Below are positions 1 to 61,986 of a stretch of DNA of 64,000 bases, piece by piece (the first letter of the stretch is position 1; the number at the start of each line of letters is the position of its first letter). The notes under the pieces were generated by a model, which did not search any database, had not been told where the DNA came from, and was given only the letters and a program-made list of their open reading frames with translations. Source of the stretch: Leptolyngbyaceae cyanobacterium (GTDB taxonomy: Bacteria; Cyanobacteriota; Cyanobacteriia; Phormidesmidales; Phormidesmidaceae); NCBI GenBank assembly GCA_965263355.1, contig CBDHHL010000032.1, positions 2,272,001 to 2,336,000 of the forward strand, given 5' to 3'. Position numbers and translations under genes: made by a program.

Positions 1-1092
1 TCGGGGTTAGAGCTGGCTTTAAAGGCCTTACAAATTACCCGCACTCTCCATGCTGGGGCTGCTCCTTCTCTTGGTCAAGCTGATACAGCGCTACGAGTAA
101 CATTAAATTTTGCCTTGTCTCGTCAGTTATATGGTCAATCTCTATGGGAGATGCCAAATGTGACCGATACTTTGGCAAATGCCTTTTTAGATATTTTGAT
201 GTGTGAGTGTCTCTCAATTACCGCTGTCAGATCCTTACACACGAGTCCTGATCAAATGAGTCTACTTTCTGCTGTTGTTAAATATTTTGTTCCAGATCGG
301 GTAGAATTACTGATTAATAATTTATCGGCTGTATTAGGCGCACGTTACTATTTGAGGGAAGAACACTGTTGGGGTATTTTCCAAAAAATTGTCAGAGACC
401 ATGCCATCGTCAGTGTATTTGATGGTAGTGCAGCCGTTAACTTGAATAGTATTGTTTTACAATTGCATCAATTGGCTAGTTGTCGAGCAACTATTCGAGA
501 AGATATTGATAACACAATTCATTCCTATCTTGATGCTACATATAATTTAACTAACACTCTGCCACACTTTAAGCCTCAACAACTAGAACTATACAATCGA
601 GGTTTTGATTATACGCTTCAGGGAGTTAACATTGCACTGGATCACCTATTGACATTGAAATCAACTGAGGATTTAGAGGCCAGTGTCCTGAATAACATTA
701 TTACACTTACCCAAAAACTGATAAACAAAATTCAGCAGCAGGATGCTCTAATCCTTGACTTAGGTGGACAATACATTGCTAAGTTAGGTAAATCTTCTGA
801 TTTATTTGAGTTAGCAAAATATTACTGTATTTTTCATGTGGCAGTAACCTGTGTATTGATCTGGGTATATAACCGACAGAACTTAGGTGGTTTTTTCGCT
901 CGGGGAGAATGGTTAGTTCTCTGTCTTAAACGACTGCTCAAAGATATCCGTTGTGAGAATATCTATCATGAGAAAGTCTTTGATCCTGATATTGATACTG
1001 AGAAAGCCTATTTTAGGAAGATTTGTGAGGAAGTACTGCGACTCCACAGGAATGGGCAACTGTTTTCTATCATCTCTTTGCAGTTAGGATAA
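1..1092 (+). CDS. Acyl-CoA/acyl-ACP dehydrogenase family protein (5'-truncated by window)
   Basis: Frame is open from base 1 (SGLELALKALQITRTLHAG...ADTALRVTLNFALSRQLYGQ). ACAD C-terminal features are present (R-x-L-Y-G; FQKIVRDHAIVSVFDGSAAVN). It sits upstream of desaturases and an ACP. Confidence 0.75.
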   Translation, partial: SGLELALKALQITRTLHAGAAPSLGQADTALRVTLNFALSRQLYGQSLWEMPNVTDTLANAFLDILMCECLSITAVRSLHTSPDQMSLLSAVVKYFVPDRVELLINNLSAVLGARYYLREEHCWGIFQKIVRDHAIVSVFDGSAAVNLNSIVLQLHQLASCRATIREDIDNTIHSYLDATYNLTNTLPHFKPQQLELYNRGFDYTLQGVNIALDHLLTLKSTEDLEASVLNNIITLTQKLINKIQQQDALILDLGGQYIAKLGKSSDLFELAKYYCIFHVAVTCVLIWVYNRQNLGGFFARGEWLVLCLKRLLKDIRCENIYHEKVFDPDIDTEKAYFRKICEEVLRLHRNGQLFSIISLQLG

Positions 1093-2167: not shown

Positions 2168-3160
2168 ATGGTGAGTAGCGGTCACCATCCAAAGCCTTTA
2201 AAGGCTAGCGTATATATGTCGAAAACGTTGAATCATCCTCAAATCACAATCGTTAACGATTATTTGCAAGCAATACAGCAACGTCATGCTTTTGCAATTA
2301 CACTTTTGCCTCTGTTGGGTGTAGTACTTGCCGTTGTTCAGGTGTGGAACTATGGTATTAGTGCTGTCGATATTGCTGTCTTGCTGATTATGTACGGACT
2401 GACAGTAATTGGAGTAGAAGTAGGTCTACATCGGTATTTTTCTCACAAGTCTTTTGATACTCATCCACCGATACGTTGGGTGTTGGGTGTGCTGGGCTCA
2501 ATGGCCGCTCAAGGTCCATTGATTTATTGGGCGGCTAATCATCGCCGCCATCATCAATTTAGCGATCGCACCGGTGATCCCCACTCCCCTTATGAATACG
2601 GAGTACCTACTCAACAACGGTTAAAGGGACTTTGGCATGCTCATACAGGCTGGATGTTTCATCATACAACACCTAATCCAGCATTCTTTACTAAAGAGAT
2701 GTGTCAAGATACTTTAATTAATCAGATTGATCGTCTGTACTTAGGATGGGTTGCCTTAGGCTTGGGACTTCCTTCTGTTATCGTTGGATTGTTTACGCAA
2801 AGTTGGGCGGGGCTTTGGCTTGGATTTTTATGGGGTGGGTTAGTACGAATTTTTATTGTCAACCAAGGTGCCACTTTCTTTGTGAATTCTGTTTGTCATA
2901 CCTGGGGAAAACGACCATTTAATACCCAAGACTCAAGTACCAATAATATTTGGTTGGTCTTGGTTACCTTTGGGGGGGCCTGGCACAATAATCATCATGC
3001 CTTTCCAAATGCTGCGATGAATGATTTGGAATGGTGGCAGTTGGATTTGAGTGGTTGTCTTATTCGTGTACTCAAATGGATTGGTTGGGCCTGGAATGTT
3101 AAACAACCAACGAAGGCCATGATAGAAGCTAGAAAACATCAAAGTCTGGCATCTCCATAA
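2168..3160 (+). CDS. Second membrane fatty-acyl desaturase (delta9/JamB-like); start may be ATG 2216
   Basis: His boxes HRYFSH, HRRHH, HNNHH; clear paralogue of the upstream gene. Confidence 0.9.
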   Translation: MVSSGHHPKPLKASVYMSKTLNHPQITIVNDYLQAIQQRHAFAITLLPLLGVVLAVVQVWNYGISAVDIAVLLIMYGLTVIGVEVGLHRYFSHKSFDTHPPIRWVLGVLGSMAAQGPLIYWAANHRRHHQFSDRTGDPHSPYEYGVPTQQRLKGLWHAHTGWMFHHTTPNPAFFTKEMCQDTLINQIDRLYLGWVALGLGLPSVIVGLFTQSWAGLWLGFLWGGLVRIFIVNQGATFFVNSVCHTWGKRPFNTQDSSTNNIWLVLVTFGGAWHNNHHAFPNAAMNDLEWWQLDLSGCLIRVLKWIGWAWNVKQPTKAMIEARKHQSLASP

Positions 3161-3232: not shown

Positions 3233-3679
3233 ATGAGTATTTTAAATCAAATTTTGACCCGACAAGAGAGACTACAACCTGAAGCTCCTGTTGTTAAGTC
3301 AATAACATCCGAGGAAATTAAATTGTGGCTAATTTCTCAGCTTGCAGAGAGGTTGGAAGTTCCTTCTGAGTCAATTGATCCCCATAAAGATTTTGTGGAA
3401 TACGGCCTTAATTCGATTGAAGCTGTCAATCTTTCTGGAGGGTTAGAAAACTATCTAGGCTGTCGCCTCTCGCCTACATTGATTTGGGATTGTCCGAATA
3501 TTGAAACCCTGGTGCGGTATTTAGCAGAAGAGAATATCGCAGGAGATATTACATCTTTAACACAAAATGACCTTCAACTACGTGAAGTACAAAAACTACT
3601 GGCTAATATGGATCAACTATCTGATGAGTCTGTAGATATGTTATTAAATGTTATGTTGCCTGAGCAAGATGATCGATGA
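3233..3679 (+). CDS. Acyl carrier protein with C-terminal helical extension
   Basis: Phosphopantetheine site YGLNSIEAV (GLDS variant), LSPTLIWDCPNIETL typical of PKS-type ACPs; acidic tail LSDESVDMLL. Confidence 0.88.
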   Translation: MSILNQILTRQERLQPEAPVVKSITSEEIKLWLISQLAERLEVPSESIDPHKDFVEYGLNSIEAVNLSGGLENYLGCRLSPTLIWDCPNIETLVRYLAEENIAGDITSLTQNDLQLREVQKLLANMDQLSDESVDMLLNVMLPEQDDR

Positions 3680-3731: not shown

Positions 3732-5066
3732 ATGATGAGCATTCAACCACACATCAATAAGGTGAATCTCTCATCTCAGGAAAAACGTGCTCTACTGACA
3801 AAGTTATTGATGGAAAAAGCGCTTTTACCACCACTGTCGGTAGCCTCCTCAGATATTCCTTCTGAGTATTACTGTTTTGATCACTATTCAGGCTATCAGC
3901 AATTACAACAGCAACGCATCCAACTGCAAGCCTTAGGGTTAGAGAATCCTTATTTTGCAGTTCATGATCAGGTCGCTCAGAACACTACCCAGATAAATGG
4001 TAAAACATTTATAAATTACTCTACCTATAATTATTTGGGACTCTCAGGGCACCCTGCTGTTTCTAAAGCTGCTAAAGCTGCAATTGATCGTTATGGTACA
4101 TCGGTGTCAGCTAGCCGAATCGCCTCAGGTGAGAAAAAACTCCATCGAGAACTGGAGCAGGTCCTGGCAAAATTTCTAAATACGGAAGACTGTATTGTTT
4201 TTATTGGTGGCCATGCTACCAATGTATCCACCATTAGTCATCTGTTTGGGCGCAATGATTTGATCTTGCATGATGAGCTGAGTCATAACAGTATTTTGCA
4301 AGGGATTTTATTGTCGGGTGCCAGTGCGATCTCATTTCCCCACAATAACTGGCAGGCGCTAGATCGTCTTTTACAAGATCACCGTCATGCCTATCAACGG
4401 GTACTGATAGTCATTGAAGGCGTGTATAGCACTGATGGTGATATTCCAGATCTACCTCGATTTATCGAGGTTAAAAAACGCCATAAAACCTTTTTAATGG
4501 TGGATGAAGCCCATTCTATTGGTGTGTTAGGTAGCCAGGGAAGCGGTATTGGTGAATATTTTTCCGTAGATCGCACTGATGTAGATTTGTGGATGGGGAC
4601 CCTTAGCAAAAGTTTGGCCAGCTGTGGCGGATATATTGCTGGCAGTCAAGTGCTGGTAGACTATCTTAAATATACCGCCCCTGGTTTTGTCTATAGTGTC
4701 GGCATCTCGCCCGCCAATGCGGCGGCAGCCCTGGCAGCACTGCAACAGCTTCAATCTGAACCGGACCGTATTAGTCGTTTACATCAACGGGCCAACTTAT
4801 TTTTGAAGTTAGCCCAAAAGGCAGGCCTAAACACAGGCCTCAGTCATCATTCTGCTGTTGTACCCATTATTCTGGGTGATTCTCTACGATGTCTCCAACT
4901 AGCTCAATCATTATTCCAACAAGGAATTAACGTACAGCCATTGAGCGCACCCACGGTACCTGAAAAAACGTCTCGTTTGCGGTTCTTCATTAGCTGTCTA
5001 CATACAGAAGAGCAGATTCACTTTACTGTTGAAACCCTTATCCAGGCAGTGACAGATTTGCCATGA
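3732..5066 (+). CDS. Alpha-oxoamine synthase family PLP enzyme (SPT/BioF/RkpG-WcbT-like)
   Basis: YNYLGL, HNS, EGVYSTDGD, VDEAHS, GTLSKS (PLP Lys), RLRFF motifs. Confidence 0.9.
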   Translation: MMSIQPHINKVNLSSQEKRALLTKLLMEKALLPPLSVASSDIPSEYYCFDHYSGYQQLQQQRIQLQALGLENPYFAVHDQVAQNTTQINGKTFINYSTYNYLGLSGHPAVSKAAKAAIDRYGTSVSASRIASGEKKLHRELEQVLAKFLNTEDCIVFIGGHATNVSTISHLFGRNDLILHDELSHNSILQGILLSGASAISFPHNNWQALDRLLQDHRHAYQRVLIVIEGVYSTDGDIPDLPRFIEVKKRHKTFLMVDEAHSIGVLGSQGSGIGEYFSVDRTDVDLWMGTLSKSLASCGGYIAGSQVLVDYLKYTAPGFVYSVGISPANAAAALAALQQLQSEPDRISRLHQRANLFLKLAQKAGLNTGLSHHSAVVPIILGDSLRCLQLAQSLFQQGINVQPLSAPTVPEKTSRLRFFISCLHTEEQIHFTVETLIQAVTDLP

Positions 5067-5318: not shown

Positions 5319-6344
5319 ATGCAAGTGTTAGTGACTGGAGGTGCTGGTTACATTGGCTCCCATGTGGTCTATCAGTTAGAAAAGCAAGGGTATGATGTAG
5401 TTGTTTATGACAACTGTTCTGTCGGTAATCTAGCAAATGTCTTATCAGCAGACGTGCTTATCGGTGATCTAAAGGACATTGATAAACTTTCTAGTACATT
5501 TGCCAGATATCGATTCGATGCAGTACTTCACTTTGCTGCCAGCACAATTGTCCCTGAATCTATAACCTACCCGTTAGACTATTATCAAAATAATGTATGT
5601 GCCACGCTTAATTTGCTGCGTTGTTGCCAGACCTATCAGGTCAATCAGCTAGTTTTTTCGAGCACAGCAGCTGTGTACGGACATTCCCCCAATGAACCAA
5701 TAACGGAATCATTTCCCACATCACCGATTAATCCCTACGGACAATCTAAATTGATGTGTGAACAGATCATTCAGGATCATGCGCGGTCATCAGATTTACG
5801 TTGTACGATCCTGCGCTATTTCAATGTTGCTGGAGCTAATCCTCACATACCAGTAGGACAATCTGTACTTAATGCGACTCACCTGATCAAAGTTGTTTGT
5901 GAAGCTGCTGTCGGTAAGCGTCCTTGGGTGAAAATATTTGGTACCGACTTTCCAACCAGAGATGGAACAGGTATTCGAGACTATATCCATATAAACGATC
6001 TTGCTACAGCTCATTTGATTGCTTTAGAGTATTTATCCTCAGGAGGAACAACTGATATTCTGAATTGTGGCTATGGCAAAGGATACAGTGTTCGAGAGGT
6101 GGTCGAAGCTGCAAAAAGATTGTCTGGCATTGACTTTCCAGTCATCGAAACCGAACGACGTCCAGGCGACCCAGCTTGTTCGATTGCTGCTTCAGAACGG
6201 ATTCGACGGATATTGGGATGGCAGCCTCAACACGATGCACTAGACGTTATCGTTAGCAGTTCTTTAGCTTTGGAACAGCAACTATTACAGAATAATGGAC
6301 ACGCAGACAATAAGTACCCTGTGCCTCAAATAAAATGTTTATGA
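5319..6344 (+). CDS. galE: UDP-glucose 4-epimerase
   Basis: VTGGAGYIGSH, HFAA, FSSTAAVYG, YGQSK, LRYFNVAGA, DGTGIRDYIH motifs. Confidence 0.9.
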   Translation: MQVLVTGGAGYIGSHVVYQLEKQGYDVVVYDNCSVGNLANVLSADVLIGDLKDIDKLSSTFARYRFDAVLHFAASTIVPESITYPLDYYQNNVCATLNLLRCCQTYQVNQLVFSSTAAVYGHSPNEPITESFPTSPINPYGQSKLMCEQIIQDHARSSDLRCTILRYFNVAGANPHIPVGQSVLNATHLIKVVCEAAVGKRPWVKIFGTDFPTRDGTGIRDYIHINDLATAHLIALEYLSSGGTTDILNCGYGKGYSVREVVEAAKRLSGIDFPVIETERRPGDPACSIAASERIRRILGWQPQHDALDVIVSSSLALEQQLLQNNGHADNKYPVPQIKCL

Positions 6345-6356
6345 GCATACTGCTAG

Positions 6357-7238
6357 TTGCAACAGTATTTTTTACCATTGGGCATAACGTTATGCAAAAT
6401 AAAGATTGAAATACTAGCTATGAATATATTTAGCAAGAGATTCATAGGTCCTCTAGTTATGCAAAATCAGATCAAAATTATCAGGAAATTCTATCTTAAT
6501 GCTAATCTGATTTTTAGTTGGCTTCTATCCACAAGACTAATTCTTATACTTGGTTGCCAAAGGAGTGGGACGACATTAACTCATATGCTAATATCGTCGC
6601 ATCCAAAAATTGATGGGAAAGATGAGAGCGAAATTGGATTTGATTTTCCAAATTGGAAATTTCTAATTTGCTCCTTTTTGAAAGGGCATTACCTTAGCTG
6701 TAAGTTGCCAACAAAAACTCCAGAACTTGAGTCAATAATCCATAAATTTCCCCATGCGACAGTTGTATGGGTAACCAGGAATCCGCTGAGTGTTGTTTCA
6801 TCGATGAAAACCTTAAAAATTGGTGACACAACCAATTGGCTGCAAAAACATGGTAAAAGTGAACTTTTGAGACATGGGAAAATTTTTCCTGAACTTATGG
6901 CGATTGATTTTGAGCGGACGGATCAGATTTCATTGGGTGCGTATATTTGGAAGTACAAGCTGAAAACCAGGCAATTATATACTGATTCTCCCTTAAGAAA
7001 CTTTTCCTTTGTCTATGAGGATCTTGTCGCAAATCCGAAGAAAGAGATAACTCCAATGCTAAAGGATTTAGAACTTAACTGGAATGATAAGATTCTAAAC
7101 CACGAAGAAGTTCATCGTGGCAAAAGATATCCTGGCCGTACGATTGGCAGTAGGCCGATCGATCAAAGCAGAATCAATCCAACTTTAAATCTGGATGAGG
7201 ATGAGATCAAACGAGTGCGAAGTATACTAAAAGACTGA
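6357..7238 (+). CDS. PAPS-dependent sulfotransferase (likely start ATG 6420 or 6459)
   Basis: GCQRSGTT 5'-PSB loop, RNPLSVVSS 3'-PB, YEDLV. Confidence 0.8.
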   Translation: MQQYFLPLGITLCKIKIEILAMNIFSKRFIGPLVMQNQIKIIRKFYLNANLIFSWLLSTRLILILGCQRSGTTLTHMLISSHPKIDGKDESEIGFDFPNWKFLICSFLKGHYLSCKLPTKTPELESIIHKFPHATVVWVTRNPLSVVSSMKTLKIGDTTNWLQKHGKSELLRHGKIFPELMAIDFERTDQISLGAYIWKYKLKTRQLYTDSPLRNFSFVYEDLVANPKKEITPMLKDLELNWNDKILNHEEVHRGKRYPGRTIGSRPIDQSRINPTLNLDEDEIKRVRSILKD

Positions 7239-7337
7239 GCGAGTCTGATTTATAAATTTCCAGCGGTTTAGAAATAATTGTAGAGATAACTCCCCATCAA
7301 GATTGCAGCTACTGCTTAACGTATGGCAAACACTAAA

Positions 7338-7892
7338 CTATTGCTTTAAACCAAGTTGCTTTCGTAGCCAGGTTGCTCCCATAAATAAAAGAGGAGCAAC
7401 AATACAGCCCGTTAAAACTAAATGCTTAGGAAAAGCGAAAAAAAAGTACCATAGAATTAGAACTCCAAATGTTGAGTCCATATGATCGATGACGTAAAAG
7501 AGGCGATTACTTTCATCTCCTGGTGGTATTTGTAAGCGACGTTTAATAAACGAATTGGGAAGCTCAGCCAAATTAAAAATAAATCCAACGAATAGTCCAT
7601 AGACTATAGCGTTAAAATCTGACAACAACACAAAATTTGTTTTTTCTTGGAATAGATAGATTTCGGGTAGCTGTATAAGCCAGGTGCTGACAACCATTGT
7701 TATCGGTAAGCTGACTAAACCTCGCCAACGTTTGTTAGCACCAAACCAGGTCTGGTGGATAGGCTGATTCAAAGATTCAAAATAGGGTGTTTTCCAGAGA
7801 AAGGCTTCCAATACACCGGCAAGGAATAGACCACAACCTAACCACATTAGATTAAAAGTATCTCTTAAGATTATTAAAAAAATATTTTCCAT
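7338..7892 (-). CDS. CarS (CDP-archaeol synthase)-like membrane cytidylyltransferase
   Basis: FGANKRWRG, AELPNSFIKRRLQIPPG, IDHMDS signature of the CarS/CTP_transf family; several TM helices. Confidence 0.8.
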   Translation of the reverse strand: MENIFLIILRDTFNLMWLGCGLFLAGVLEAFLWKTPYFESLNQPIHQTWFGANKRWRGLVSLPITMVVSTWLIQLPEIYLFQEKTNFVLLSDFNAIVYGLFVGFIFNLAELPNSFIKRRLQIPPGDESNRLFYVIDHMDSTFGVLILWYFFFAFPKHLVLTGCIVAPLLFMGATWLRKQLGLKQ

Positions 7893-7913
7893 CTTGATAA
7901 TTCTAATAGTGCG

Positions 7914-9245
7914 ATGATCTTATTTGAGAATAAACTGGGCCAGCTTATATCCCAGGGTGCTGCCTATGATTGCGATGGTTGGGGACAGCTGACGACAGAT
8001 ACCCTAAGCTGGTCTGTTAATGGAAAACACTATGCCCTTGCTCTGGCCGATACTGTCGGTGTGTCAGCTTGTGATTCCACAGAAAAACAGGGAGGTTTGT
8101 GTTTTGAAGTGTATGCTTATCCGCTAGTGTCTACTAAGCGATGGTTCCAAACCATCGCTTGCTCCAAACGGGTATTGCGAACCTATAAATTTGTTTGTCC
8201 AAAAGCTGAGGTGCGATCGCAATGGCTGCAATCCCTTCAATATGTTCTGAACCAGAGGCCGATCCAGGAAAACTCAAAACCACGTCACCTGCACATTATA
8301 CTCAACCCCACTAGTGGTAAAAGACAGGCCCAGAAGATCTATCAGCTGATTAAACCAATCTTTGAAAACAGCAATATTCAGATTACCCTAACCCAGACCA
8401 CCTCCATCAACCATGGCTTTGAACTCGCTAGAACTCTACCCCTAAATGAGTTAGATGGTTTGGTGGTTATTGGTGGAGACGGTACTTTATACGAAGTCAT
8501 TAATGGCCTTATGGAGCGGCCCGATTGGCAAACGGCTATTCAAACTCCCATTGGCATTATGCCAGCCGGTACTGGAAACGGTTTATGTAAAACCCTTTTA
8601 GAGCAGGCAGGTGAACCCTATGATCCCATTAGTGCCGCGTTTCTAATTGCCAAAGGCAAAACCTATCCCATAGACCTTATTGCTATTGAGCACTGTGGGA
8701 AACGTTATCACAGTTTTCTCTCCTTAGAATGGGCCATAGCCAGTGATGTAGACATCGGGTCAAATTATCTGCGATTTCTGGGTTCCCTCAGACACATGCT
8801 CTATGCCCTGTTTTGTATCCTACGTTTCCGAGTATATAAGGGGCGTTTTTCCTTCTTGCCTGCCCACCCACCCCACCTTCAGTTACACAGCCATGGGAGT
8901 AGCCCTTGGCAAACTATTGAAGATGACTTCATTTTCTTCTGGGCCATGAACATAAAATGGGCTGCCCACGATATGCAAATAGCTCCCCACGCGCAGTTAG
9001 ATAATGGTACTATAGACGTCATTCTGATTCGTAAGGGCATCTCTCGATTGCAGTTATTAATCGCGTTTCTAAAAACTGCTACGGGAGAATACATAAACAT
9101 GGAGAAAATAGAATACTACAGGGTAACGAGTTTCTTGCTAGAACCCCTAACATCAACAGGAATTTTGGCCGTAGATGGAGAGCAGATTGACTACAGCCCA
9201 CTCCAAGCTAATGTTAAGAAAGGCCTAGCCTGCATCATGGGTTAA
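7914..9245 (+). CDS. Eukaryote-type sphingosine/ceramide kinase (DAGK_cat) with PH-like N-terminal domain
   Basis: LNPTSGK, GGDGTLYEVINGLMERPDWQTAIQ, PAGTGNGL, SDVDIGS, VDGE; closely resembles SPHK1/plant SPHK motifs as I recall them. Confidence 0.85.
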   Translation: MILFENKLGQLISQGAAYDCDGWGQLTTDTLSWSVNGKHYALALADTVGVSACDSTEKQGGLCFEVYAYPLVSTKRWFQTIACSKRVLRTYKFVCPKAEVRSQWLQSLQYVLNQRPIQENSKPRHLHIILNPTSGKRQAQKIYQLIKPIFENSNIQITLTQTTSINHGFELARTLPLNELDGLVVIGGDGTLYEVINGLMERPDWQTAIQTPIGIMPAGTGNGLCKTLLEQAGEPYDPISAAFLIAKGKTYPIDLIAIEHCGKRYHSFLSLEWAIASDVDIGSNYLRFLGSLRHMLYALFCILRFRVYKGRFSFLPAHPPHLQLHSHGSSPWQTIEDDFIFFWAMNIKWAAHDMQIAPHAQLDNGTIDVILIRKGISRLQLLIAFLKTATGEYINMEKIEYYRVTSFLLEPLTSTGILAVDGEQIDYSPLQANVKKGLACIMG

Positions 9246-9251
9246 GGATTG

Positions 9252-9896
9252 CTAGGCATTATCTACCTGGGCAATAGCTTTAATTGATTCCAAAAGCTGC
9301 AATACATTTGTAGATTGTTTTATTACATAAAGAGGCAAACAGACCAGTATAGTTATTTGAACAAAACTCAAGCTACCCCCCATCCAACTCAACAAAGGTG
9401 TCTTGACATAATATGAAGAGTACAGAAGCAAATAAAGCAGTTCATTACCGATAATCAGTGCGTCCATAAATGGCTTGTTGCCATAATAAAGAGTGAGCAG
9501 TCTATTCTTCGACCAGGTAGTAGCTTCTTTATGGTTGATATACCCCCCAATTGCTGTTGCATATAGCAAATAGTAATGACTGCCGATATCCAATGCAATT
9601 AACAGAATAAAAATAGAGGTGTATTCAGGATAGAGTTCTGACAAAATAAGACATAGACCTGCTGTGGAACAGCGATCTGTCACCATATCTAGCGCTGCTC
9701 CAAAGTGAGAGCTTTGCTTAAACTGTCTAGCGGCCCGGCCATCAAACTCATCGAGTAGAAAAGCCAATGAATATAGACCAACAAAGATTTCCCAATGGCC
9801 ACCCCAGGTATGGCCAATGAATGCACCTGCGTAAAGGAACACTCGCAGATAGCCAATAAGATTGGGAATATAAAGGAAGACTCGATTATTCGTCAT
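9252..9896 (-). CDS. Eukaryote-type CDP-diacylglycerol--inositol 3-phosphatidyltransferase (PIS/CDIPT-like)
   Basis: Starts MTNNRVFLYIPNLIGYLR. CDP-alcohol motif DEFDGRAARQFKQSSHFGAALDMVTDRCST, plus PIS-specific LDIGSH, NHK, LYY, GNEL. The ORF track starts at TTG 9953; ATG 9896 fits better. Confidence 0.85.
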   Translation of the reverse strand: MTNNRVFLYIPNLIGYLRVFLYAGAFIGHTWGGHWEIFVGLYSLAFLLDEFDGRAARQFKQSSHFGAALDMVTDRCSTAGLCLILSELYPEYTSIFILLIALDIGSHYYLLYATAIGGYINHKEATTWSKNRLLTLYYGNKPFMDALIIGNELLYLLLYSSYYVKTPLLSWMGGSLSFVQITILVCLPLYVIKQSTNVLQLLESIKAIAQVDNA

Positions 9897-10113
9897 ATTG
9901 ATTATGGATTCAAGCACCAGAAGCGTAAATGTTATTAAAACCTTTTGGCTCAAAAGATGAACAATATATAATTGACTATAGTCTGACAGCTTTTGCGATG
10001 TCTATAGGTCCAAAAACCTCAACATTAAAATGTGCTGTGAGGAGTCTTCGGAAGCAGCTTTAGTCTAGAAAACTCTTAGCAAGAAACCTCACGTAGAATT
10101 ACTTAGGAGAGAA

Positions 10114-11169
10114 TTGATGCTTGTAGTAACAACAGTAATTTCAACCATACTGTTTGGTATAACTGTTGCCATTATTATGATGCCAGCCAGCACCCAAAAA
10201 AAGAGGGTATTTTTGCAAGCAAAGAAAGATTTTATAGGCTGGGCAAGGGATTTCAAAGCTGTTCAGGTTGATAGTAAGGAGGAAACCTGGGCTAAAGATA
10301 TTACTATCATTATCAAAACGTTTGAGCGCCCTTGTTGTATCGTACAATTGCTCAAATCTATCAGACAATATTATCCTACGGTTCAGGTTTTAGTTTGTGA
10401 CGACAGTAGAGAAACTTTATTTCAGGATCAAGAATCGCCCCAAGCTAGCATTACCTGGTTCACGCTTCCTTTTGAAGCTGGCCATAGTATTGGTGCTGGT
10501 CGAAATCATCTGTTAGATCATGTTCGTACAAAATATGTATTTCTCTGTGATGATGACTCTGTTTTTAATGACCATACTTGTCTAGAAAAATTACATAGGT
10601 TTTTAGAAGAGTCTAATTATGACTTTATTGCAGGTGCAGCAGGGAAAGATAATGCCAATATCTCTGTTTTTGAGCAGCAGGGATCAGTTGTTTACCAACG
10701 ATTTGGTCGCCATAAAGGTGTGGTTAGTCCTGGTGTTGTCAGGTGCGATCGCGTCGATAATGTCTGGCTTGCTAAAACCGATGCCGTCAAGCAAGTTCGC
10801 TGGGAATCACGTACCGTTGCCAATGAGCATAATGACTTTTTTCTACGTGCCTCTCGACAGGATCTCAAGATTGCTCAAATGGCCAATGTGTATGTTGACC
10901 ATGATCGTAGCTGTGAGGTAGCCACTGGTATTGGTCGGCTAGTGCAATGGGTATTGCCCCAATATCATTGGGATCGCGAGTATTATAATTTAACGGTTGG
11001 ATCTAATAACTTCTTAGGAATTCGCAGCCATCAATCTAGACGATTAGAGCAAGAATATATTTTTAAGAAAAATGGTATAGACAAGATTGTGGATATTAAT
11101 ACTCCCTTTTCCCGTAGGCGGCTAAATAACTTTTTAAAGATCTCAGAACTTGGTATGCTCAATCCTTAG
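10114..11169 (+). CDS. GT-A glycosyltransferase resembling B4GALNT1/2 (GT12/GT2-like), N-terminal membrane anchor
   Basis: TIIIKTFER, SIRQYYPTVQVLVCDDS, GAGRNHLLDHVRTKYVFLCDDD, HNDFF, VYVDH; RBS AGGAGAG upstream. Confidence 0.8.
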   Translation: MMLVVTTVISTILFGITVAIIMMPASTQKKRVFLQAKKDFIGWARDFKAVQVDSKEETWAKDITIIIKTFERPCCIVQLLKSIRQYYPTVQVLVCDDSRETLFQDQESPQASITWFTLPFEAGHSIGAGRNHLLDHVRTKYVFLCDDDSVFNDHTCLEKLHRFLEESNYDFIAGAAGKDNANISVFEQQGSVVYQRFGRHKGVVSPGVVRCDRVDNVWLAKTDAVKQVRWESRTVANEHNDFFLRASRQDLKIAQMANVYVDHDRSCEVATGIGRLVQWVLPQYHWDREYYNLTVGSNNFLGIRSHQSRRLEQEYIFKKNGIDKIVDINTPFSRRRLNNFLKISELGMLNP

Positions 11170-12266: not shown

Positions 12267-13046
12267 ATGATGAAAGTATTGATAAACTTTGGCAACCGTA
12301 GTTATTACCATTCTCAAAAAATCAATAGCCAATCAGGCCTTTCAGTAGGAGACTTTGATCAGAGCATTCAATATACACCTAGAGATATTGATCGAGAATT
12401 TTGGCAGAAGAATCAGAGAGTTCTATCTCAAAAACGGGGAGCTGGCTACTGGTTATGGAAACCATATTTTATTAAAAAAGCATTAACCTCATTGCAGTGG
12501 GGTGATTATCTTTTCTATTGTGATGCAGGTGCCCATTTTATTGCTTCCATCAACCCATTGATCGAAATCTGTGAATCATCTAACCAAGACATAATTGTTT
12601 TTGAGTTGGAGTTATTAGAACGAGCATGGACCAAGCGAGATGCTTTCATCTTAATGGATGCTGATGTGCCGGAAATAATTGATACCCCTCAACGAATTGG
12701 AGGGTACCATCTGTGGAAAAAAACATCTTTTTCACTGAGTTTGATACAAGAATGGCTTGATTATGCGCAAGACGAACGCATTATTACAGACCTTCCTAAC
12801 CAATTGGGGCAACCTAACTATCCGGAATTTACTGAGCATCGCCACGATCAGTCTAGTTTAAGTTTACTCACCAAAGGGTATAAGATTCCTGCCCACCGCA
12901 ATCCATCCCAGTGGGGTAATCCTTTCATAGCACAGTACCCCCAGTCCACCTATGGGCAATTAATTCAAGGTACACGTCGCCGCGATAACTTATTCCAGCA
13001 AGGCATTAATTATATTTACGATATGAGTCTAGCTTTAACACAATAA
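12267..13046 (+). CDS. Putative glycosyltransferase/glycan-cluster protein (RGxGYWxWKP...HRHDQS family)
   Basis: RGAGYWLWKPY, YCDAG, WTKRDAF, HRHDQS motifs seen in surface-glycan cluster proteins. Confidence 0.6.
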   Translation: MMKVLINFGNRSYYHSQKINSQSGLSVGDFDQSIQYTPRDIDREFWQKNQRVLSQKRGAGYWLWKPYFIKKALTSLQWGDYLFYCDAGAHFIASINPLIEICESSNQDIIVFELELLERAWTKRDAFILMDADVPEIIDTPQRIGGYHLWKKTSFSLSLIQEWLDYAQDERIITDLPNQLGQPNYPEFTEHRHDQSSLSLLTKGYKIPAHRNPSQWGNPFIAQYPQSTYGQLIQGTRRRDNLFQQGINYIYDMSLALTQ

Positions 13047-15305: not shown

Positions 15306-16163
15306 TCAAAAAAAATGTAAAAAAACAAATATTATGCCTAGCAAAACTAAGAGAATTTCTACTTTAGGCATAGGTAATTTAAACCTAGCAATTAAATATA
15401 TATGCATCATTGCCATTCTGCCAAATTTACTTTTTTGGCATATCCTGTTTACATCGGTGATTGAATCTACACAGGATAAACTATCACAAGAAAATGTCTC
15501 ACTCAATGCATAAAGTCTTACCTTTTTTATATAAGCAATGGATGACAATAGCAAATCATCATTTGTTTTTATCCATAAACCATAATTTTCAATATAGTTT
15601 GACCATTCTGTTGAAGGGAGAAAAAAGGTGGCAGTGCACATAATCATGCAAGCTGCTTCCAAAACAGCAACTCTATTAAATTCTAAATTGTTATAAATTC
15701 CAGAACTGCGACTAAACCGAAATGGGAAATAGTAGAATTGAACTCCCTGAAAGCCCACCATAACATTGGTATGGCCTAAGGAAGAATAATTTCTATACAA
15801 AATGCTGACGCTATCTGATGAGTAGTAAGTGTCATCATCAAAAATAACAATTTGGTTTTTGTCTGAAAAAAGGTCTAGTTTTTTAAGCGTTTCATGGATG
15901 TAAATAAACTTTGTGGCTGGGCCTTGATCCTCAACTTCAAAGACTTTTAGGATGGGTTCAGACGTAATTTTTTTTGGTAATCCTGGATATGCTTGGTTTA
16001 GCCTTTTGTTAAACCTGGGATAAAACAGGAGAATCAAATTTACTAATTTAGTATTTTTGATGGATTCAATATTTTTTTCTAAATTTCCTACTCTTGTAGG
16101 TGTAGTTGTAAGCGATCCAATAATCATATTTGAATAAAGAGAATGAGCATTAGTATGCAACAA
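15306..16163 (-). CDS. Divergent GT-A-fold glycosyltransferase-like protein with C-terminal TM helix
   Basis: SLTTTPTR, DQGPATKF, IVIFDDD, NDDLLLS; very AT-rich; likely start ATG 16127. Confidence 0.5.
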   Translation of the reverse strand: MLHTNAHSLYSNMIIGSLTTTPTRVGNLEKNIESIKNTKLVNLILLFYPRFNKRLNQAYPGLPKKITSEPILKVFEVEDQGPATKFIYIHETLKKLDLFSDKNQIVIFDDDTYYSSDSVSILYRNYSSLGHTNVMVGFQGVQFYYFPFRFSRSSGIYNNLEFNRVAVLEAACMIMCTATFFLPSTEWSNYIENYGLWIKTNDDLLLSSIAYIKKVRLYALSETFSCDSLSCVDSITDVNRICQKSKFGRMAMMHIYLIARFKLPMPKVEILLVLLGIIFVFLHFF

Positions 16164-43458: not shown

Positions 43459-43608
43459 GGGGCCATTTCGGTAGCATCACGGCTTTCTGTGAATACTAAA
43501 CCTGTCCATGTCCAGAACGGTCATTTTTCCGTAGAAGACCTACAGGTCTCAACTTGGACATAGTTTAGGTTGTGGTGTGAAATATCCTATCTACCGGAGA
43601 CGTTACCT

Positions 43609-46600
43609 ATGGTACAGAGCAAACATTGTGCCCTTCTCATCATTGGCAGCTTGTTCATTGGTGTGGAAGATGTCTGTGCCCAGTCAATCGTTCCCAATGG
43701 AGCTAACACCTCAGTCACCAATGTCAATGGTGACCATCAGGTTACTGGAGGAACTGCATCCAACGGTGGCCAGAATCTATTTCATAGTTTTGAGCAATTT
43801 GGCCTCACGTCTAACGAATCTGCCACCTTTGTCACCCAGCCTAATGTGGTCAATGTATTGGGGCAGATCAATGGAGGTAGCCCTTCGATTATCAATGGTC
43901 AGTTAGGGATTACTGGCAGTACGGCCAACTTATTTTTATTGAACCCAGCGGGAGTGGTGTTTGGGCCAGATGCCACCCTGGCATTGCCCAGAAATCTAAG
44001 TGTTTCAACGGCTGATGGGGTGGCCTTTGGAGACAATATTTTAGAGGTCATGGGCACCTCTGACTATGGCAGTCTAGTTGGCAATCCCACTGGGCTAGTC
44101 TTTCGATTTAGTACCCCTGGGTCGATCATTAATGCCGCGAACCTTAACCTCGGTGTGAATAACTCCCTGATGTTAGCAGGGGAAACCGTTGTATCAACGG
44201 GCAATATATCGGCTGGAGAGGTTGCGATCGCAGCTGTCCCCGGTGAACAACTCATCCGGCTTAACCCAGATGGAGCGATCCTCGGCTATGACATCGCCCC
44301 CAGTGGCGACAACGGTTTGTTATCTCCCCTGAGCCTTCCAGAACTCTTGACTGGTGCTGGTGATATTGCCAACAGTTTACAGCTAGACACTGATGGCACC
44401 GTACGGCTAGTTAATCATGGGTTAGCTATTCCAGACACACCGGGCACAACCATCGTAAATGGTGATATCACTGCCAGTGAGATTACCCTATTAGGAGACA
44501 TTGTCGGTGTTGTCGATAGTCTGCTAGCAGCTAGCGGTCCCGATGGCGGTGGTGCTATCTCCATTGGTGGCAGCTATCAGGGACAGGGACCTTTGCCCAA
44601 TGCCAAGATTACCTATATCAGTGCTGATTCGGTATTAAATGCCAGTGCTACCGTTAATGGGGATGGTGGCGAGATTATTGTCTGGAGCGATCAGACTACC
44701 CATGCCCTGGGTCAATTTTTAGCCCTAGGAGGACCCAGTGGCGGTAACGGTGGTTTAATCGAAACCAGTGGCCGACAAGGATTAACATTGGGCACCACTG
44801 CTCCCGATGTGTCGGCACCAGCAGGATTAGCTGGCCTATGGTTAATTGACCCATTTAATGTGGTGATTGGTGAATTTGAAACCTCTACCGAATTTTCTGA
44901 AGGAGATGTCTTTAGTCCAATTGCGTCTCCAGCTGAGTTAGATGTCGACCTTATTGTCAATGCCCTGAAAGATGGCAATGTTACGATAACGACAGGAACT
45001 GAGGGGCAAGAAGAGGGAACTATCACCCTCATCAGTGACCTGCTCTATGAGAATTTAGCAGGTCAAACAAACACATTAACGTTAGAAGCGGCAGGAAGTA
45101 TTTTTATCAATGCCAGTATCGAGCCTCTGTCGTTTAGTAATCCTATCAATATCAACCTTTTAGCCGACTCTGACAACACAGGTAATGGTCAGGTTGTTAT
45201 CGGTAATGGAGGAAATACTGATTTTTTCAGCGATATCGACACAGCTGGTGGGAATCTTACAGTAGAAGCAGATAGTACAACCTTAACTGGTATAACAGAC
45301 CCATCAGCCATCATTCTTGATAATTTTACAACGATCTCGACGTTTGATCGGTTTGGCGACGGAGAGACAGGTGGAACTGTTTTTCTAGAAGGGATTGCCA
45401 GCAGTGGTAAGGGGATTCAGCTGAGAACTGAATCTGCTCTTAGAGCTGCAAGCGATGTCACATTAATCGGTGATTCTAATGGCGATGTCGGCGTCTCCAT
45501 TGAGGGTGAACTTGAGATTAGTAATGGCTCTTTACTGGTAACGGGTAACAGCACAAACAACCCAGTCGGTATTTTTACATCAACTGATCTGCAGACTAAT
45601 ATTAACAACAATAGTCAAATTATTCTCACCAGTGACAGTGATATTCAAGTTGAGGGTTTGCGTGCCGGTGGCGATATTACAGTGACAACGCCAGCCTTCT
45701 TTAGGGCATCAGGCATCATTTTTAATGGAGAAATAGACGGGGAGATACCAGGAGAAATAGACGGAGAGATACCAGGAGAAATAGACGGGGAGATACCAGG
45801 AGAAATAGACGGAGAGATACCAGGAGAAATAGACGGAGAGATACCAGGAGAAATAGAAATAAGACCGCTTGGCAGCATTATTAGTGAGACTGGCCAGGTC
45901 ATTATTACCCACGGTGGTAATGGCCTAACTACGTTTGATGTAGGCAACGACTTGGTCAACGGTACGGCAGCTGCAATTGTTGCCACATCGGACGAGATAC
46001 AACCCCCTGCTTCCTTTACAGAAAGTTTCATAGCAATCAATGAAACTATTTCTATTTTGACTGGGGAAGTTGACCCAACAGTCCCGGTAGTCCCGGTAGT
46101 CCCGGTAGTCCCGACAGTCCCGGTAGTCCCGACAGTCCCGACAGTCCCGACAGTCCCGGCAGGTCCAGAAGAAGAACTTCCAGAAGTGGGCTGTATTGTG
46201 GACTGCCAAGAGATTCCTGTCAATCCTGATACAACGTCTATTGCAATTGACGATGCGATTATTGATATCGACTCAAATCGATTGCTCGGCGATGAGAGAG
46301 CTATTCGCCAGATTGACAATAGCTATACAAATAGTTATCAAAGCTATCTCAATTTAGGTAATGATGAATCACCGACCTTTAACATACCTCAGGTACAGAC
46401 CGATCTAGCCTTGGTAACTGAAAAAACTGGCATTCGTCCAGCCATTGTCTATGTTTCATTTGTCCCCAACAGGGACAAATCGGTTACCAATAGACAACTA
46501 TCTAAACAACAGATCGAAATAGGACAAGAAATTCAACCAACGGATGTTTTGGAATTGGTGGTGGTTACCCCTGAGGGTAAACCAATCCTCAAAACCCTAC

Positions 46601-47574
46601 CGATACAACAGGAGCAAGTATTAAAAACAGCGGCTCGGTTTCGCGCTAATGTCACTAATCTGGGACGAGTGCAGACGCAAACCTATCTCAGTGCTGCTCA
46701 GACATTACATGATTGGCTGATTGCTCCCCTAGAAGCAGAACTAGAACAGCGAGGGATTGGTAACCTGGCCTTTGTGATGCCCCCTGGATTGCGATCGCTC
46801 CCCGTATCTGCCCTCCATAACGGCGAGCAATTTCTGATTGAGCGCTACAGTGTCGGTCTAATGCCCAGCGTCAGTTTAACGGATCTGAGCTATGTAGATA
46901 TACGTGACTCTGAGGTATTGGCCATGGGGGCATCTGACTTTGCTGATCAACCCAAGTTGCCAGCGGTCCCCCTTGAACTCAGCACCATTGCCAATAAACT
47001 ATGGTCTGGTGATTTCGTTATCAATGAAACCTTTACCCCCGATTCCCTGGTGGCCAGTCGGACATTAAAACCCTATGGTATTGTCCATTTGGCTACCCAT
47101 AGTGAATTTAGGGCAGGTAGTCTTGATAACTCCTACATTCAGTTTTGGGATCAACGTCTGAGCCTTGACCAGGTTCGTTCCTTGGAGCTTAACAATCCCC
47201 CGGTTGAGCTTATGGTTCTCAGTGCCTGTCGTACCGCCCTAGGCAATGAGGAAGCTGAGTTAGGCTTTGCCGGTTTTGCTGTCCAGGCGGGTGTTAAAAC
47301 TGCCATTGCCAGCCTATGGAAAGTAGACGATGTCGGCACAGCGGGCTTAATGACCCAGTTTTATACGAGTTTACAAACCGAGCCCATCAAGGCCGAAGCC
47401 CTGCGTCAGGCACAGTTAGCCATGATCAATGGCGATATTCGAGTCGAGAATGGCCAATTGCGCTGGTCCGGAGGCACACTACCGCTGCCCGATAATTTAG
47501 CCTGGGTTGACAGTAGCCTATTTTCCCATCCCTATTTCTGGGCCTCCTTTACCTCCATTGGCAGTCCTTGGTGA
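43609..47574 (+). CDS. Filamentous haemagglutinin N-terminal (TPS) domain + CHAT (caspase-like) domain protein
   Basis: Signal peptide then NLFHSFEQF, NLFLLNPAGVVFG, GGNGGLIETSG; C-terminal VHLATHS, VLSACRTA, SLWKVDD, HPYFWASF. Confidence 0.9.
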   Translation: MVQSKHCALLIIGSLFIGVEDVCAQSIVPNGANTSVTNVNGDHQVTGGTASNGGQNLFHSFEQFGLTSNESATFVTQPNVVNVLGQINGGSPSIINGQLGITGSTANLFLLNPAGVVFGPDATLALPRNLSVSTADGVAFGDNILEVMGTSDYGSLVGNPTGLVFRFSTPGSIINAANLNLGVNNSLMLAGETVVSTGNISAGEVAIAAVPGEQLIRLNPDGAILGYDIAPSGDNGLLSPLSLPELLTGAGDIANSLQLDTDGTVRLVNHGLAIPDTPGTTIVNGDITASEITLLGDIVGVVDSLLAASGPDGGGAISIGGSYQGQGPLPNAKITYISADSVLNASATVNGDGGEIIVWSDQTTHALGQFLALGGPSGGNGGLIETSGRQGLTLGTTAPDVSAPAGLAGLWLIDPFNVVIGEFETSTEFSEGDVFSPIASPAELDVDLIVNALKDGNVTITTGTEGQEEGTITLISDLLYENLAGQTNTLTLEAAGSIFINASIEPLSFSNPININLLADSDNTGNGQVVIGNGGNTDFFSDIDTAGGNLTVEADSTTLTGITDPSAIILDNFTTISTFDRFGDGETGGTVFLEGIASSGKGIQLRTESALRAASDVTLIGDSNGDVGVSIEGELEISNGSLLVTGNSTNNPVGIFTSTDLQTNINNNSQIILTSDSDIQVEGLRAGGDITVTTPAFFRASGIIFNGEIDGEIPGEIDGEIPGEIDGEIPGEIDGEIPGEIDGEIPGEIEIRPLGSIISETGQVIITHGGNGLTTFDVGNDLVNGTAAAIVATSDEIQPPASFTESFIAINETISILTGEVDPTVPVVPVVPVVPTVPVVPTVPTVPTVPAGPEEELPEVGCIVDCQEIPVNPDTTSIAIDDAIIDIDSNRLLGDERAIRQIDNSYTNSYQSYLNLGNDESPTFNIPQVQTDLALVTEKTGIRPAIVYVSFVPNRDKSVTNRQLSKQQIEIGQEIQPTDVLELVVVTPEGKPILKTLPIQQEQVLKTAARFRANVTNLGRVQTQTYLSAAQTLHDWLIAPLEAELEQRGIGNLAFVMPPGLRSLPVSALHNGEQFLIERYSVGLMPSVSLTDLSYVDIRDSEVLAMGASDFADQPKLPAVPLELSTIANKLWSGDFVINETFTPDSLVASRTLKPYGIVHLATHSEFRAGSLDNSYIQFWDQRLSLDQVRSLELNNPPVELMVLSACRTALGNEEAELGFAGFAVQAGVKTAIASLWKVDDVGTAGLMTQFYTSLQTEPIKAEALRQAQLAMINGDIRVENGQLRWSGGTLPLPDNLAWVDSSLFSHPYFWASFTSIGSPW
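45727..45856 (+). repeat. 24-bp coding tandem repeat (GEIDGEIP x5 plus partial)
   Basis: ggagaaatagacgg(g/a)gagatacca repeated five times in frame. Confidence 0.9.
46075..46157 (+). repeat. 9-bp coding tandem repeat (PVV/PTV x9)
   Basis: ccggtagtc/ccgacagtc units in frame. Confidence 0.88.
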
Positions 47575-50170: not shown

Positions 50171-51043
50171 TCACGCGCGGGCAATACTGGCAACCCGTCC
50201 TCCAGTTTTGTTGATACGCTGCAGAGTTTGGGATAGAGTTTCGTAAGGTACTACAAACACTCGATTGCTGCGGCGAATACTGGGATAGCCTGGGGTACTC
50301 ATACCAGCAACTTCAATTCGATATAGAGTGCCACGTTCCTGAGTTGTGTGAGGTCGTCCAAAGACACGCGTTTGAGGAGTATTTTTCGTGGAGGCTAAAT
50401 ATGTACTGACGCCACTACCAGTTCCTGAAGGGGTATTAATTACAGATGTAGTCCCCAGGGCCAATTCTGTTGCTAAGCGGGATTTATTACCCGCAAGCTG
50501 TGATCGATCGCTATTGGCATAGCCCCGATAAAGGCTAAACATTCTAGTAAACCCTGAGATACTTTGCCCTACCTCAGTATTAAAACTGCGATAGTAGGGA
50601 ACAATGTTATCTCCAAAGGCTTGTTCATACTCCTGTGTATCGATGTAGGAATCGATATCAGCATCAAATCCTTCAGTTTCGTAACGATCTAAATGCTCAA
50701 TGATCTCTGCTTCGCTATAGGGTGCCCGCCCTAACAGATGCTTGAAATTTAGTTCAATAACACGAGTTTGAAAGTTAGGATACAAAAACTTAGTCTTGTA
50801 TAGCTCAGATTTAGCCACAGCTCTAACAAACTCTCGAACGGTTAATGTCCCATTGACAAGTAGAGATTCCAAACCGACTAACCGTTCAGATTCCATTAAG
50901 TAGTCATTGCCTAAAACATGCCGATAAACGGCCTGAATGACTGCTTTTATAGTGTCTGACGAGGCATTGGGACGAAACTCTAGGGGGCCTTGCTCACTAA
51001 ACGGTGTAGTGCCTAACCAAGCAGCCGATTGGGTAATAGCCAC
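50171..51043 (-). CDS. cpcC: Phycocyanin rod linker (CpcC/CpcI-type)
   Basis: [41 protein letters not shown], CpcD-like C-terminus. Confidence 0.9.
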
Positions 51044-51133
51044 AGATCAATCTCCTTCAAAGTACTTAACTCGGTAATCTTGATTACCTGGATTCAGATG
51101 TCTGTATGAGGTAATACTCCAAAAGTGAGAATA

Positions 51134-51952: not shown

Positions 51953-51996
51953 AATGGTTTTCCAGAACTGTCGTTTATGAACAATGCTTTTCTTGC

Positions 51997-52034
51997 ATCC
52001 ATTGCCTGACATGTTCGTTAGTCAGGCAATGGAT
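51997..52034 (-). terminator. Stem-loop downstream of cpcA (terminator/mRNA stability element)
   Basis: Perfect 14-bp arms ATCCATTGCCTGAC / GTCAGGCAATGGAT, 12 bp after the cpcA stop. Confidence 0.7.
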
Positions 52035-52046
52035 AGGCCTTAACCG

Positions 52047-52535: not shown

Positions 52536-52601
52536 GATGCTAAATCTCTCCAAAAAAAATATCTACAAAATTGACAAACGAGTTATTAACGTTGCGCAGA
52601 G

Positions 52602-60301: not shown

Positions 60302-60327
60302 TAGAAATTTTCCTTTATTTCACAGAA

Positions 60328-61864: not shown

Positions 61865-61986
61865 TGGGATAGTTCTTTACTCGTGTTTTAGTAAGGATGG
61901 TTTGGGAAAGCATTGTTGAGAGCAAGTGGCTTAGAGGGATAACTTGCTCAGCGATGGCTGGAAATTGTTGTCCAGGGTTAACTCAA

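Follow-up and report, generated by a model that had tools for sequence, protein, structure and literature searches.

Here we report that three adjacent genes of a cyanobacterial genome probably form a head-group module for inositol phosphosphingolipids, acting through a cytidine diphosphate (CDP)-activated sphingolipid. The genes occupy positions 7338-9896 of a 64,000-nucleotide stretch of a Leptolyngbyaceae genome (hereafter the window; GenBank assembly GCA_965263355.1, contig CBDHHL010000032.1, positions 2,272,001 to 2,336,000), and encode a CarS-like CDP-transferase, a sphingosine-kinase-like (SphK-like) lipid kinase and a phosphatidylinositol synthase (PIS)-like transferase. From a biochemical standpoint, this is probably known chemistry in a new combination, in which a CDP-activated sphingolipid leads to an inositol head. 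If true, a cyanobacterial sphingolipid pathway could be set out gene by gene, including an activated intermediate that is new; part of the bacterial CarS-like family would receive its first function, ceramide synthases might gain a new class, and the phosphatidylinositol (PI)-ceramides of spirulina extracts would have a genetic origin. Such a route is unexpected in a group for which, as far as the accessible part of a 2022 study goes, no sphingolipid enzyme had been characterised (PMC8895605).

Three predicted enzymes of consecutive lipid chemistry

All three open reading frames (ORFs) are intact, each with full-length homologs, and 7338-9896 runs exactly from the stop of the CarS-like gene to the ATG of the PIS gene. 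The first gene, for a predicted CarS-family lipid-phosphate cytidylyltransferase using cytidine triphosphate (CTP) and proposed as a CDP-sphingolipid synthase (7338..7892, minus strand, 184 aa), stands head-to-head with that for the eukaryote-type SphK-like kinase (7914..9245, plus strand, 443 aa; DAGK_cat and YegS_C domains), with 21 bp between the start codons. The kinase gene is in turn tail-to-tail, 6 bp apart, with the gene for the eukaryote-type PIS-like CDP-alcohol phosphotransferase (9252..9896, minus strand, 214 aa; PF01066), which starts at the ATG at 9896, where homologs begin, or possibly at a TTG at 9953. Because the strands alternate, the trio is no single transcript and no operon. 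A promoter and terminator scan of 7200-10200 was uninformative (10 sites against 6.8 +/- 3.0 expected).

A first-pass annotation, made from the sequence alone, had assigned the CDP step to the CarS family and not to CdsA, and profile, fold and motif evidence bears this out. The protein scores 40 bits against PF01864 (gathering threshold 22), with no CTP_transf_1 match at E<=0.01 in Pfam. Its model (pLDDT 92.7) superimposes on Aeropyrum CarS (5GUF) with Z 11.1 (rmsd 2.8, 144 residues aligned), the next-best Z being 6.9 and that for CdsA (4Q2E) 6.1; 5GUF was also the sole PDB match of its profile A4 (E 3.7e-5). A single-sequence PDB search found no match, and Foldseek returned nothing at E<=0.001, the top entry again being 5GUF (E 0.07). 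Homologs number 239, with 60-74% identity among the 120 matches listed, self excluded. Over 120 close homologs, the set size used for all three proteins, the motifs G-x-NK-x-WRG (120/120), ELPNS-x-x-KRR (119/120) and DH-x-DS (120/120) are conserved; the latter two align to SFVKRR and DQLD of 5GUF, instances of the SFxKRR and D-x-x-D cytidylyltransferase motifs, which have catalytic roles. The residue before the SFxKRR-type motif, Asp in CarS, is an invariant Glu here. A collection of plasmids held nothing for the CarS-like protein and, for the kinase, just generic diacylglycerol (DAG) kinases at about 25% identity. Contigs from RNA libraries of three studies carry the CarS-like gene and parts of the kinase gene of an Acaryochloris marina-like locus (L003), such contigs being no proof of transcription.

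The kinase matches human SphK1 best in the PDB (E 2e-47; AGK reaches 8e-19 and DgkB 4e-11), and its model matches SphK1 in Foldseek at 1.6e-33. Its 284 homologs share 42-60% identity; some 20 top-ranked representatives, the nameable ones cyanobacterial, are followed, among the named matches, by eukaryotic sphingosine kinases and other eukaryotic proteins. Behind an N-terminal beta-rich, possibly PH-like domain, GGDG is present in 120/120 homologs and the ATP and catalytic motifs are kept (N22, GDG, G111-G113 and D341 in SphK1 numbering, mapped onto the PDB alignment). In the sphingoid-binding motif W-G-x-x-x-D-V-D, the S168 position is Ser in 99% and the D178 position (D280 here) Asp in 100% of the homologs, none of which carries CxxxCxxC, given as the ceramide kinase (CERK) motif in the available part of PMC10331486. 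The SphK1 tunnel walls L268, L302 and M306 are replaced by Ala (99%), Ala (94%) and Cys or Ser (83%), a weak hint that the smaller residues may fit a two-chain substrate; Ala at the 268 position also occurs in 24% of distant kinase representatives. The substrate may be ceramide, with the free base a somewhat less likely candidate. In a FastTree tree of 66 rows, with no CERK or AGK outgroup, a single group (support 96) amid eukaryote-labelled SphKs brings together 30 close and top-ranked rows, including that of the window; the backbone is weak, and therefore no donor is named. Six CxxxCxxC-bearing rows considered as CERK references were ruled out, being SphK-type. Within the cyanobacterial group lies a gammaproteobacterial kinase of 44% identity (P0337, Thiorhodovibrio winogradskyi).

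The third protein carries the motif DxxDGxxAR-x8-GxxxDxxxD at residue 49, as do 120/120 close homologs (396 matches in all, 53-67% identity). In the ESM Atlas it comes closest to clusters of eukaryotic PIS (score 0.96, 221-222 of 256 features), and its scores against models of bacterial and archaeal phosphatidylinositol-phosphate synthase (PIPS), archaetidylinositol-phosphate synthase (AIPS) and PgsA are weak (21-29 bits; 24-29 for the PIPS models), which places it, by prediction, closer to eukaryotic PIS of the CDIPT type than to bacterial PIPS or PgsA. It would use free myo-inositol, as its co-occurrence with the inositol-phosphate synthase MIPS suggests. The consecutive chemistries first read from this DNA (lipid alcohol to lipid phosphate, to CDP-lipid, to phosphodiester) are thus supported by families and motifs. 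The description of the module as one archaeal-like gene with two eukaryote-like ones stands for the latter two; the first is archaeal in fold only, its nearest relatives and clusters being bacterial CarS-like proteins and its score against the archaeal CDP-archaeol synthase equivalog (NF003114) 32.4 bits, short of the 148-bit cut-off.

Co-occurrence and gene neighbourhood across cyanobacteria

Of 160 confirmed stretches from a scan of genomes with the CarS-like alignment, 79 loci were retained, and 48 of these are cyanobacterial (51-75% identity). The 47 genomes behind these 48 loci, chosen by their CarS-like gene, span Acaryochloris, Pleurocapsales, Oscillatoriales and Leptolyngbyaceae. The kinase is present in all 47, an ortholog of the window's serine palmitoyltransferase (SPT)-like gene in 45 (at least 56% identity, range 56-72%; most also hold a separate BioF-level match of about 40%), and MIPS and a KDSR-like reductase in 44 each. 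In an even background sample of 301 cyanobacterial genomes, many of about 2 Mb and including the central genome, G003, the kinase occurs in 4, MIPS above its cut-off in the same 4 and PIS in 3 of those; an SPT-like gene occurs in 20, all four kinase genomes among them. No CarS-like gene was found in nine kinase-free genomes holding an SPT-like or a FAAL-B/KDSR gene (FAAL-B, a type of fatty acyl-AMP ligase, or FAAL, is described below), with G003 as positive control. These counts argue for a head-group module of kinase, CarS-like enzyme, inositol transferase and MIPS that sits within a broader group of backbone-making genomes.

Two unrelated enzymes share the last step. PIS is present in 29 of the 47 genomes and a PIPS/AIPS-like transferase in 15, never both, while three metagenome-assembled genomes (MAGs) have neither; the split follows lineage, and each type is found beside the kinase, at different loci. 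The best model for the alternative transferase is AIPS, at 117-126 bits and below its cut-off. A PgpA-type phosphatase was found in none of five carrier genomes tested. Acaryochloris has a histidine phosphatase gene between those for SPT and KDSR (L224:11208-11879), and three Pleurocapsa-like genomes have one tail-to-tail with the kinase gene (G036:C10:97314-97940; L163, L164); as a marker of the PIPS route the phosphatase was rejected, homologs of about 42% occurring in 5/5 tested genomes, PIS-type included.

At the level of gene neighbourhoods, the CarS-like and kinase genes form a pair at 14 of the 48 loci, head-to-head in every case (Acaryochloris, Oscillatoria, Limnospira and others); the other CDP-alcohol transferase lies near the kinase at 7, and the kinase occurs with either transferase at 9. 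At least one other pathway gene flanks the CarS-like gene at 37 of the 48, among them MIPS at 18, KDSR-like at 5 and SPT-like at 4. In about 12 kb, locus L045 unites PIS, kinase, CarS-like, GT4, Stealth, LicD, KDSR-like, a FAAL-ACP-SPT fusion (ACP, acyl carrier protein), a second FAAL and MIPS. The GT4, Stealth and LicD genes stand between CarS-like and KDSR there and elsewhere (L045:10560-13277; L027:1938-4604), and further decoration of the inositol head, of a glycosyl inositol phosphoceramide-like kind, is possible.

More distant CarS-like genes (L049-L079) neighbour a PEP-utilising enzyme, an HMG-CoA-reductase-like protein, UbiA, an acyl-CoA ligase and a YghO-like acyltransferase, and are often fused to a CDP-alcohol transferase (Moraxellaceae, Bacteriovoracaceae and others; L053:9299-10495, L068:6611-9363). 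Kinase, PIS, MIPS and SPT queries matched at none of these loci; with different neighbours and without the queried pathway genes, they therefore belong to a different system, which is another unexplained lipid pathway.

Proposed pathway and backbone genes

In the scheme we propose, the logic of glycerophospholipid synthesis would be copied onto a sphingoid backbone. A FAAL of type A would load a fatty acid onto a dedicated ACP, the chain being tailored by an acyl-CoA/ACP dehydrogenase (ACAD), desaturases or hydroxylases; SPT would condense the ACP-bound chain with serine; a eukaryote-type KDSR would reduce the ketone; and an N-acyl chain would be added, with FAAL-B, a divergent second FAAL, as candidate amide synthetase. 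The SphK-like kinase would then phosphorylate the C1 hydroxyl of a long-chain base or ceramide, the CarS-like enzyme would convert the phosphate with CTP into a CDP-sphingolipid (CDP-ceramide, or a CDP-long-chain base if acylation comes later), and PIS, with MIPS as the source of myo-inositol, would put this in place of cytidine monophosphate (CMP). Other lineages would finish with a PIPS/AIPS-like enzyme, inositol-1-phosphate and a phosphatase. The product would be inositol phosphoceramide (IPC), with PI not the donor. Every substrate and the order of steps are what we infer; the families, the catalytic motifs, the genome co-occurrence and the mutual exclusion of the two transferases are observed. 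A fuller version, in which Acaryochloris, Pleurocapsales and some Oscillatoriales (including edible Arthrospira/Limnospira) make IPC via CarS-made CDP-ceramide, with FAAL-B as a new class of ceramide synthase and the pathway a mosaic of eukaryote-type SphK, KDSR and PIS with prokaryotic CarS-like, MIPS and PIPS, is unlikely to hold in all its parts.

Part of the backbone set lies in the window, in a block 2-7 kb upstream of the trio and on the plus strand: the C-terminal part of an ACAD, cut by the window start (1..1092; PF00441), two membrane fatty-acid desaturases that probably tailor the chain (1162-2127 and 2168-3160; PF00487), a dedicated ACP (3233..3679; PF00550) and an alpha-oxoamine synthase (AOS), the proposed SPT (3732..5066). 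This order is repeated in L012, and the ACAD is about 50% identical to one between FAAL and ACP/SPT in L012 and L013. In relatives the ACP stands alone beside the SPT-like gene or is fused with it. In the PDB the AOS matches bacterial SPT best (3A2B, E 1e-68), with KBL and BioF ranking below it, and the KDSR-like reductase has Tsc10 KDSR as its best PDB match.

The clusters contain two types of FAAL (tree of 26 rows). FAAL-A keeps the canonical motifs and lies beside, or is fused to, ACP-SPT; in FAAL-B, PAYPP is changed to VT[DTE][NY]P and xGRNxYPQD to WGRNxYP[QH][HQLN]. A DNA motif for FAAL-B is found in 44 of the 47 carriers, in single copy each, and is not exclusive to them, matching 14 of the 301 background genomes: 3 carriers, 6 with FAAL-B-like genes and no kinase, 4 with canonical FAALs and 1 further genome, besides one off-frame match. 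For the six kinase-free genomes the backbone genes were predicted beforehand, and an SPT-like gene was found in 5 of 6 and a KDSR-like gene in 5 of 5 tested. FAAL-B thus follows the backbone and not the head group, and therefore behaves as an N-acylating enzyme should. By sequence it is a candidate N-acylating amide synthetase; its role may equally be to charge a second ACP that serves an acyltransferase not yet recognised. PlsC-type acyltransferases, candidates for N-acylating long-chain-base-1-phosphate, have 3-6 paralogs in each of five genomes, none tied to a cluster.

Further genes recur in these clusters. A B12 radical-SAM/DUF4070 enzyme with an HpnP-like domain set (L231:10436-12019; L001:10678-12282; L042:12500-14212; L367:5072-6682; L369:13172-14827) adjoins SPT in Arthrospira/Limnospira/Lyngbya and in genomes lacking the kinase, and has CarS-like as its neighbour in Acaryochloris and L042; it is a candidate for methylating the chain of this lipid, and not hopanoids. 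Genes of the Asp/Asn beta-hydroxylase family, of which A. marina has three in tandem, or else an FA_hydroxylase gene, stand beside or between the two FAALs (L224:4722-7161; L228:12947-13759; L013:17106-17636; L370:4567-5082), the hydroxylase types being interchangeable. In the kinase-free loci L367, L369 and L371 (genomes G339, G275 and G153), FAAL-B, hydroxylase, FAAL-A, ACP, SPT and KDSR are accompanied by GT4 or other glycosyltransferase-like neighbours; these genomes are probably glycosylceramide makers, which bears on the reported cyanobacterial cerebroside.

Competing explanations

A number of observations weigh against the CDP-sphingolipid reading. On linkage, the exact trio recurs at 2 of 48 loci (L042, L045); among 27 metagenomic PIS loci, none has a kinase or CarS-like gene in its flank and 3 have MIPS; the 47 genomes are related, many of them Pleurocapsa-like MAGs, and their counts are not independent events, so that p-values derived from them come out too favourable; and MIPS, KDSR and FAAL have no matches within the 64-kb window, the full set thus being seen in relatives only. 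Conservation of the three genes together, named as a check by the first-pass annotation, accordingly holds only loosely at the level of loci, the linkage being tight among whole genomes, and PIS is replaced by an unrelated enzyme in the 15 PIPS/AIPS-like genomes. The kinase might serve long-chain-base-1-phosphate signalling or detoxification, with CarS-like, PIS and MIPS on a separate inositol-lipid route that shares no intermediate with it, as the alternating strands and the scattering of the genes in most Pleurocapsa-like genomes would allow. We consider this very improbable, as the 4 of 301 genomes with the kinase are also the 4 with MIPS, CarS-like and kinase are head-to-head wherever a locus holds both, and two unrelated inositol transferases each lie beside the kinase. 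Still less credible, and already largely refuted by the co-occurrence and the repeated adjacency, is the idea that lipid genes gained by horizontal transfer came together by chance within a cell-surface island; the composition of the region (40% GC over 1-33.6 kb against 45% in the remainder of the window) and its wealth of glycosyl- and sulfotransferases lend it some appeal.

On the backbone, the AOS falls below the NCBIfam cut-offs for both SPT (325 of 640 bits) and BioF, and SPT-like domains also end frames of 1900-2750 aa (polyketide synthase (PKS)-type fusions) in many cyanobacteria (for example G030:C105, G046:C7, G029:C8, G187:C23, G064:C1); for these two reasons its use of serine is unproven. 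A TLC-type ceramide synthase was found in 0 of 5 carriers by a search whose control was silent too. A single query with YghO, which we take as a stand-in for the bacterial ceramide synthase bCerS, matched in G012 and not in G003 (a complete genome), G032 or G036, with control G345 positive. No known ceramide synthase tracks the pathway. The activated lipid could then be some other FAAL/ACP-derived amino-alcohol or an alkyl or ether lipid, leading to an inositol lipid or natural product of a specialised kind; alternatively, the pathway could end in an un-acylated lyso product like the phosphoglycerol-sphinganines that Pseudomonas fluorescens MYb115 is described as making from SPT and a KDSR homologue (available text of PMC12134224); archaeal CarS, moreover, works on ether lipids. 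We give this little credence, since the kinase requires a C1 hydroxyl, which serine supplies, the AOS is closest among solved structures to an SPT, a KDSR-like gene accompanies 44 of the 47, and the second FAAL tracks SPT and KDSR even without the kinase, pointing to a second acyl chain.

On the head group, CDP-DAG or CDP-archaeol is the substrate on which the PIS and PIPS families have been characterised. DAG is phosphorylated in vitro by related kinases, Caulobacter CpgB among them (as far as PMC10331486 is available), and Bacteroides is described as making PI first and transferring its head by an AUR1-like enzyme (PMC9246714, in part). The trio might likewise make diacyl PI (DAG to phosphatidic acid, to CDP-DAG, to PI), inositol ceramide arising later by an unrecognised head-group transferase, as in fungi and Bacteroides. 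This too seems improbable. CdsA is kept in 5/5 carriers tested, an extra CDP-transferase is therefore not needed for phosphatidic acid, and kinase and CarS-like would both be redundant, yet both are present in 47/47. The kinase retains the D178 position of SphK. The AUR1-type domain PF14378 was absent from G032 and G012 among five carriers, the others scoring 23-27 bits with one borderline at 27.1, and the SMS-type domain PF14360 was found in 0/5, its controls matching only below cut-off. In G032 (A. platensis PCC 7345) the CDP-alcohol transferases are one of PgsA level and the kinase-adjacent PIPS-like one, with no others. Taken with the retained CdsA and the lack of a convincing AUR1 or SMS, this would make a CDP-sphingolipid the simplest way for such a gene set to lead from sphingoid backbone to inositol head. 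The non-DAG substrate first suggested for the trio would accordingly be narrowed to a sphingolipid, given the SPT-like, KDSR-like and MIPS co-occurrence.

Lipid data from Arthrospira offer a lead, not proof. Cyanobacteria are not known to contain phosphatidylcholine (PC) or phosphatidylethanolamine (PE), and LB in a strain name denotes a non-axenic culture. In the available part of a lipidome of A. platensis UTEX LB 2340, the sole sphingolipids listed are PI-Cer 34:0;O3, 35:0;O3 and 36:0;O3, and the list has no diacyl PI, which also speaks against that rival (PMC11051859). The strain differs from G032, the assignments were made from head-group ions alone, and the extract also contained PC and PE (PMC11051859); the Bacteroidetes PI-dihydroceramides (PI-DHC) 34:0(OH), 35:0(OH) and 36:0(OH) reported in the accessible text of PMC9246714 are isobaric with these species. 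G032 itself has the pathway, with a hydroxylase and the B12 radical-SAM enzyme in its SPT cluster, which would fit the extra O and CH2 of the listed PI-Cer.

Relation to known systems

The archaeal CarS/AIPS and the CdsA/PIS-PIPS routes share with the proposed one the CTP activation, the subsequent displacement of CMP by inositol or inositol-1-phosphate, and the folds and motifs. Unlike them, the present set has an SphK-type kinase as source, a link to SPT and KDSR, an intact CdsA alongside and a proposed sphingolipid substrate. Fungal and plant IPC synthases (AUR1, ERH1/SMS) would yield the same product by PAP2-fold transfer from PI to ceramide.

In the portion of PMC9246714 available, the PI-DHC pathway of B. 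thetaiotaomicron comprises SPT, the MIPS BT_1526, the PIPS BT_1523, the phosphatase BT_1525 and the AUR1-like BT_1522. It has in common with the present system SPT, MIPS, an inositol CDP-alcohol transferase and the (proposed) inositol phosphoceramide product, and differs in making PI-DAG before transferring the head, whereas here there are a kinase and a CarS-like enzyme, no convincing AUR1-type enzyme and no PgpA in the five genomes tested. The ceramide-phosphoglycerate pathway of Caulobacter crescentus (Spt, bCerS, CerR, CpgABCD; PMC11324152, PMC10331486 and PMC12275187, each in part) shares the first head-group step, from lipid to sphingolipid-1-phosphate by a lipid kinase. According to the same partial texts, CpgB belongs to a bacterial clade apart from the eukaryotic kinases, the backbone is made via bCerS and CerR and not KDSR, the activated donor is CDP-glycerate, and the step from ceramide-1-phosphate to ceramide-phosphoglycerate is unexplained.

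SgaABC of MYb115 resembles the window's system in an SPT with a carrier-bound acyl chain, a eukaryote-like KDSR and a phosphodiester head on sphinganine; it differs in its PKS-made very long chains, its phosphoglycerol head and the lack of an N-acyl chain, with head-group enzymes unnamed in the main text as available (PMC12134224). Spt-like genes often lack a neighbouring bCerS, as stated in the accessible part of PMC11334938. In the literature searched, which included few subscription journals, we found no account of this pathway and nothing on 'CDP-ceramide'.

Other features of the window

Between the SPT block and the trio lie genes for GalE and a sulfotransferase (5319..7238, plus strand), with no pathway link shown; neither was found next to a CarS-like gene at any of the 48 related loci from cyanobacteria. 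Beyond the trio, about 23 kb (10114-33519, 36-44% GC) are occupied by genes for glycosyl-, sulfo- and acyltransferases and for an ABC transporter, and two ORFs in this run (12267-13046 and 15306-16163) have no Pfam match. The cyanobacterial origin of the window is evident from phycocyanin and linker genes at 50-62 kb, where a sensor kinase and response regulators lie between two separate phycocyanin beta/alpha and linker sets (50171-53120 and 59432-62505). Tandem GEIDGEIP-type peptide repeats occur at 45600-45900, within a haemagglutinin-like/CHAT protein of 1334 aa (43570-47574).

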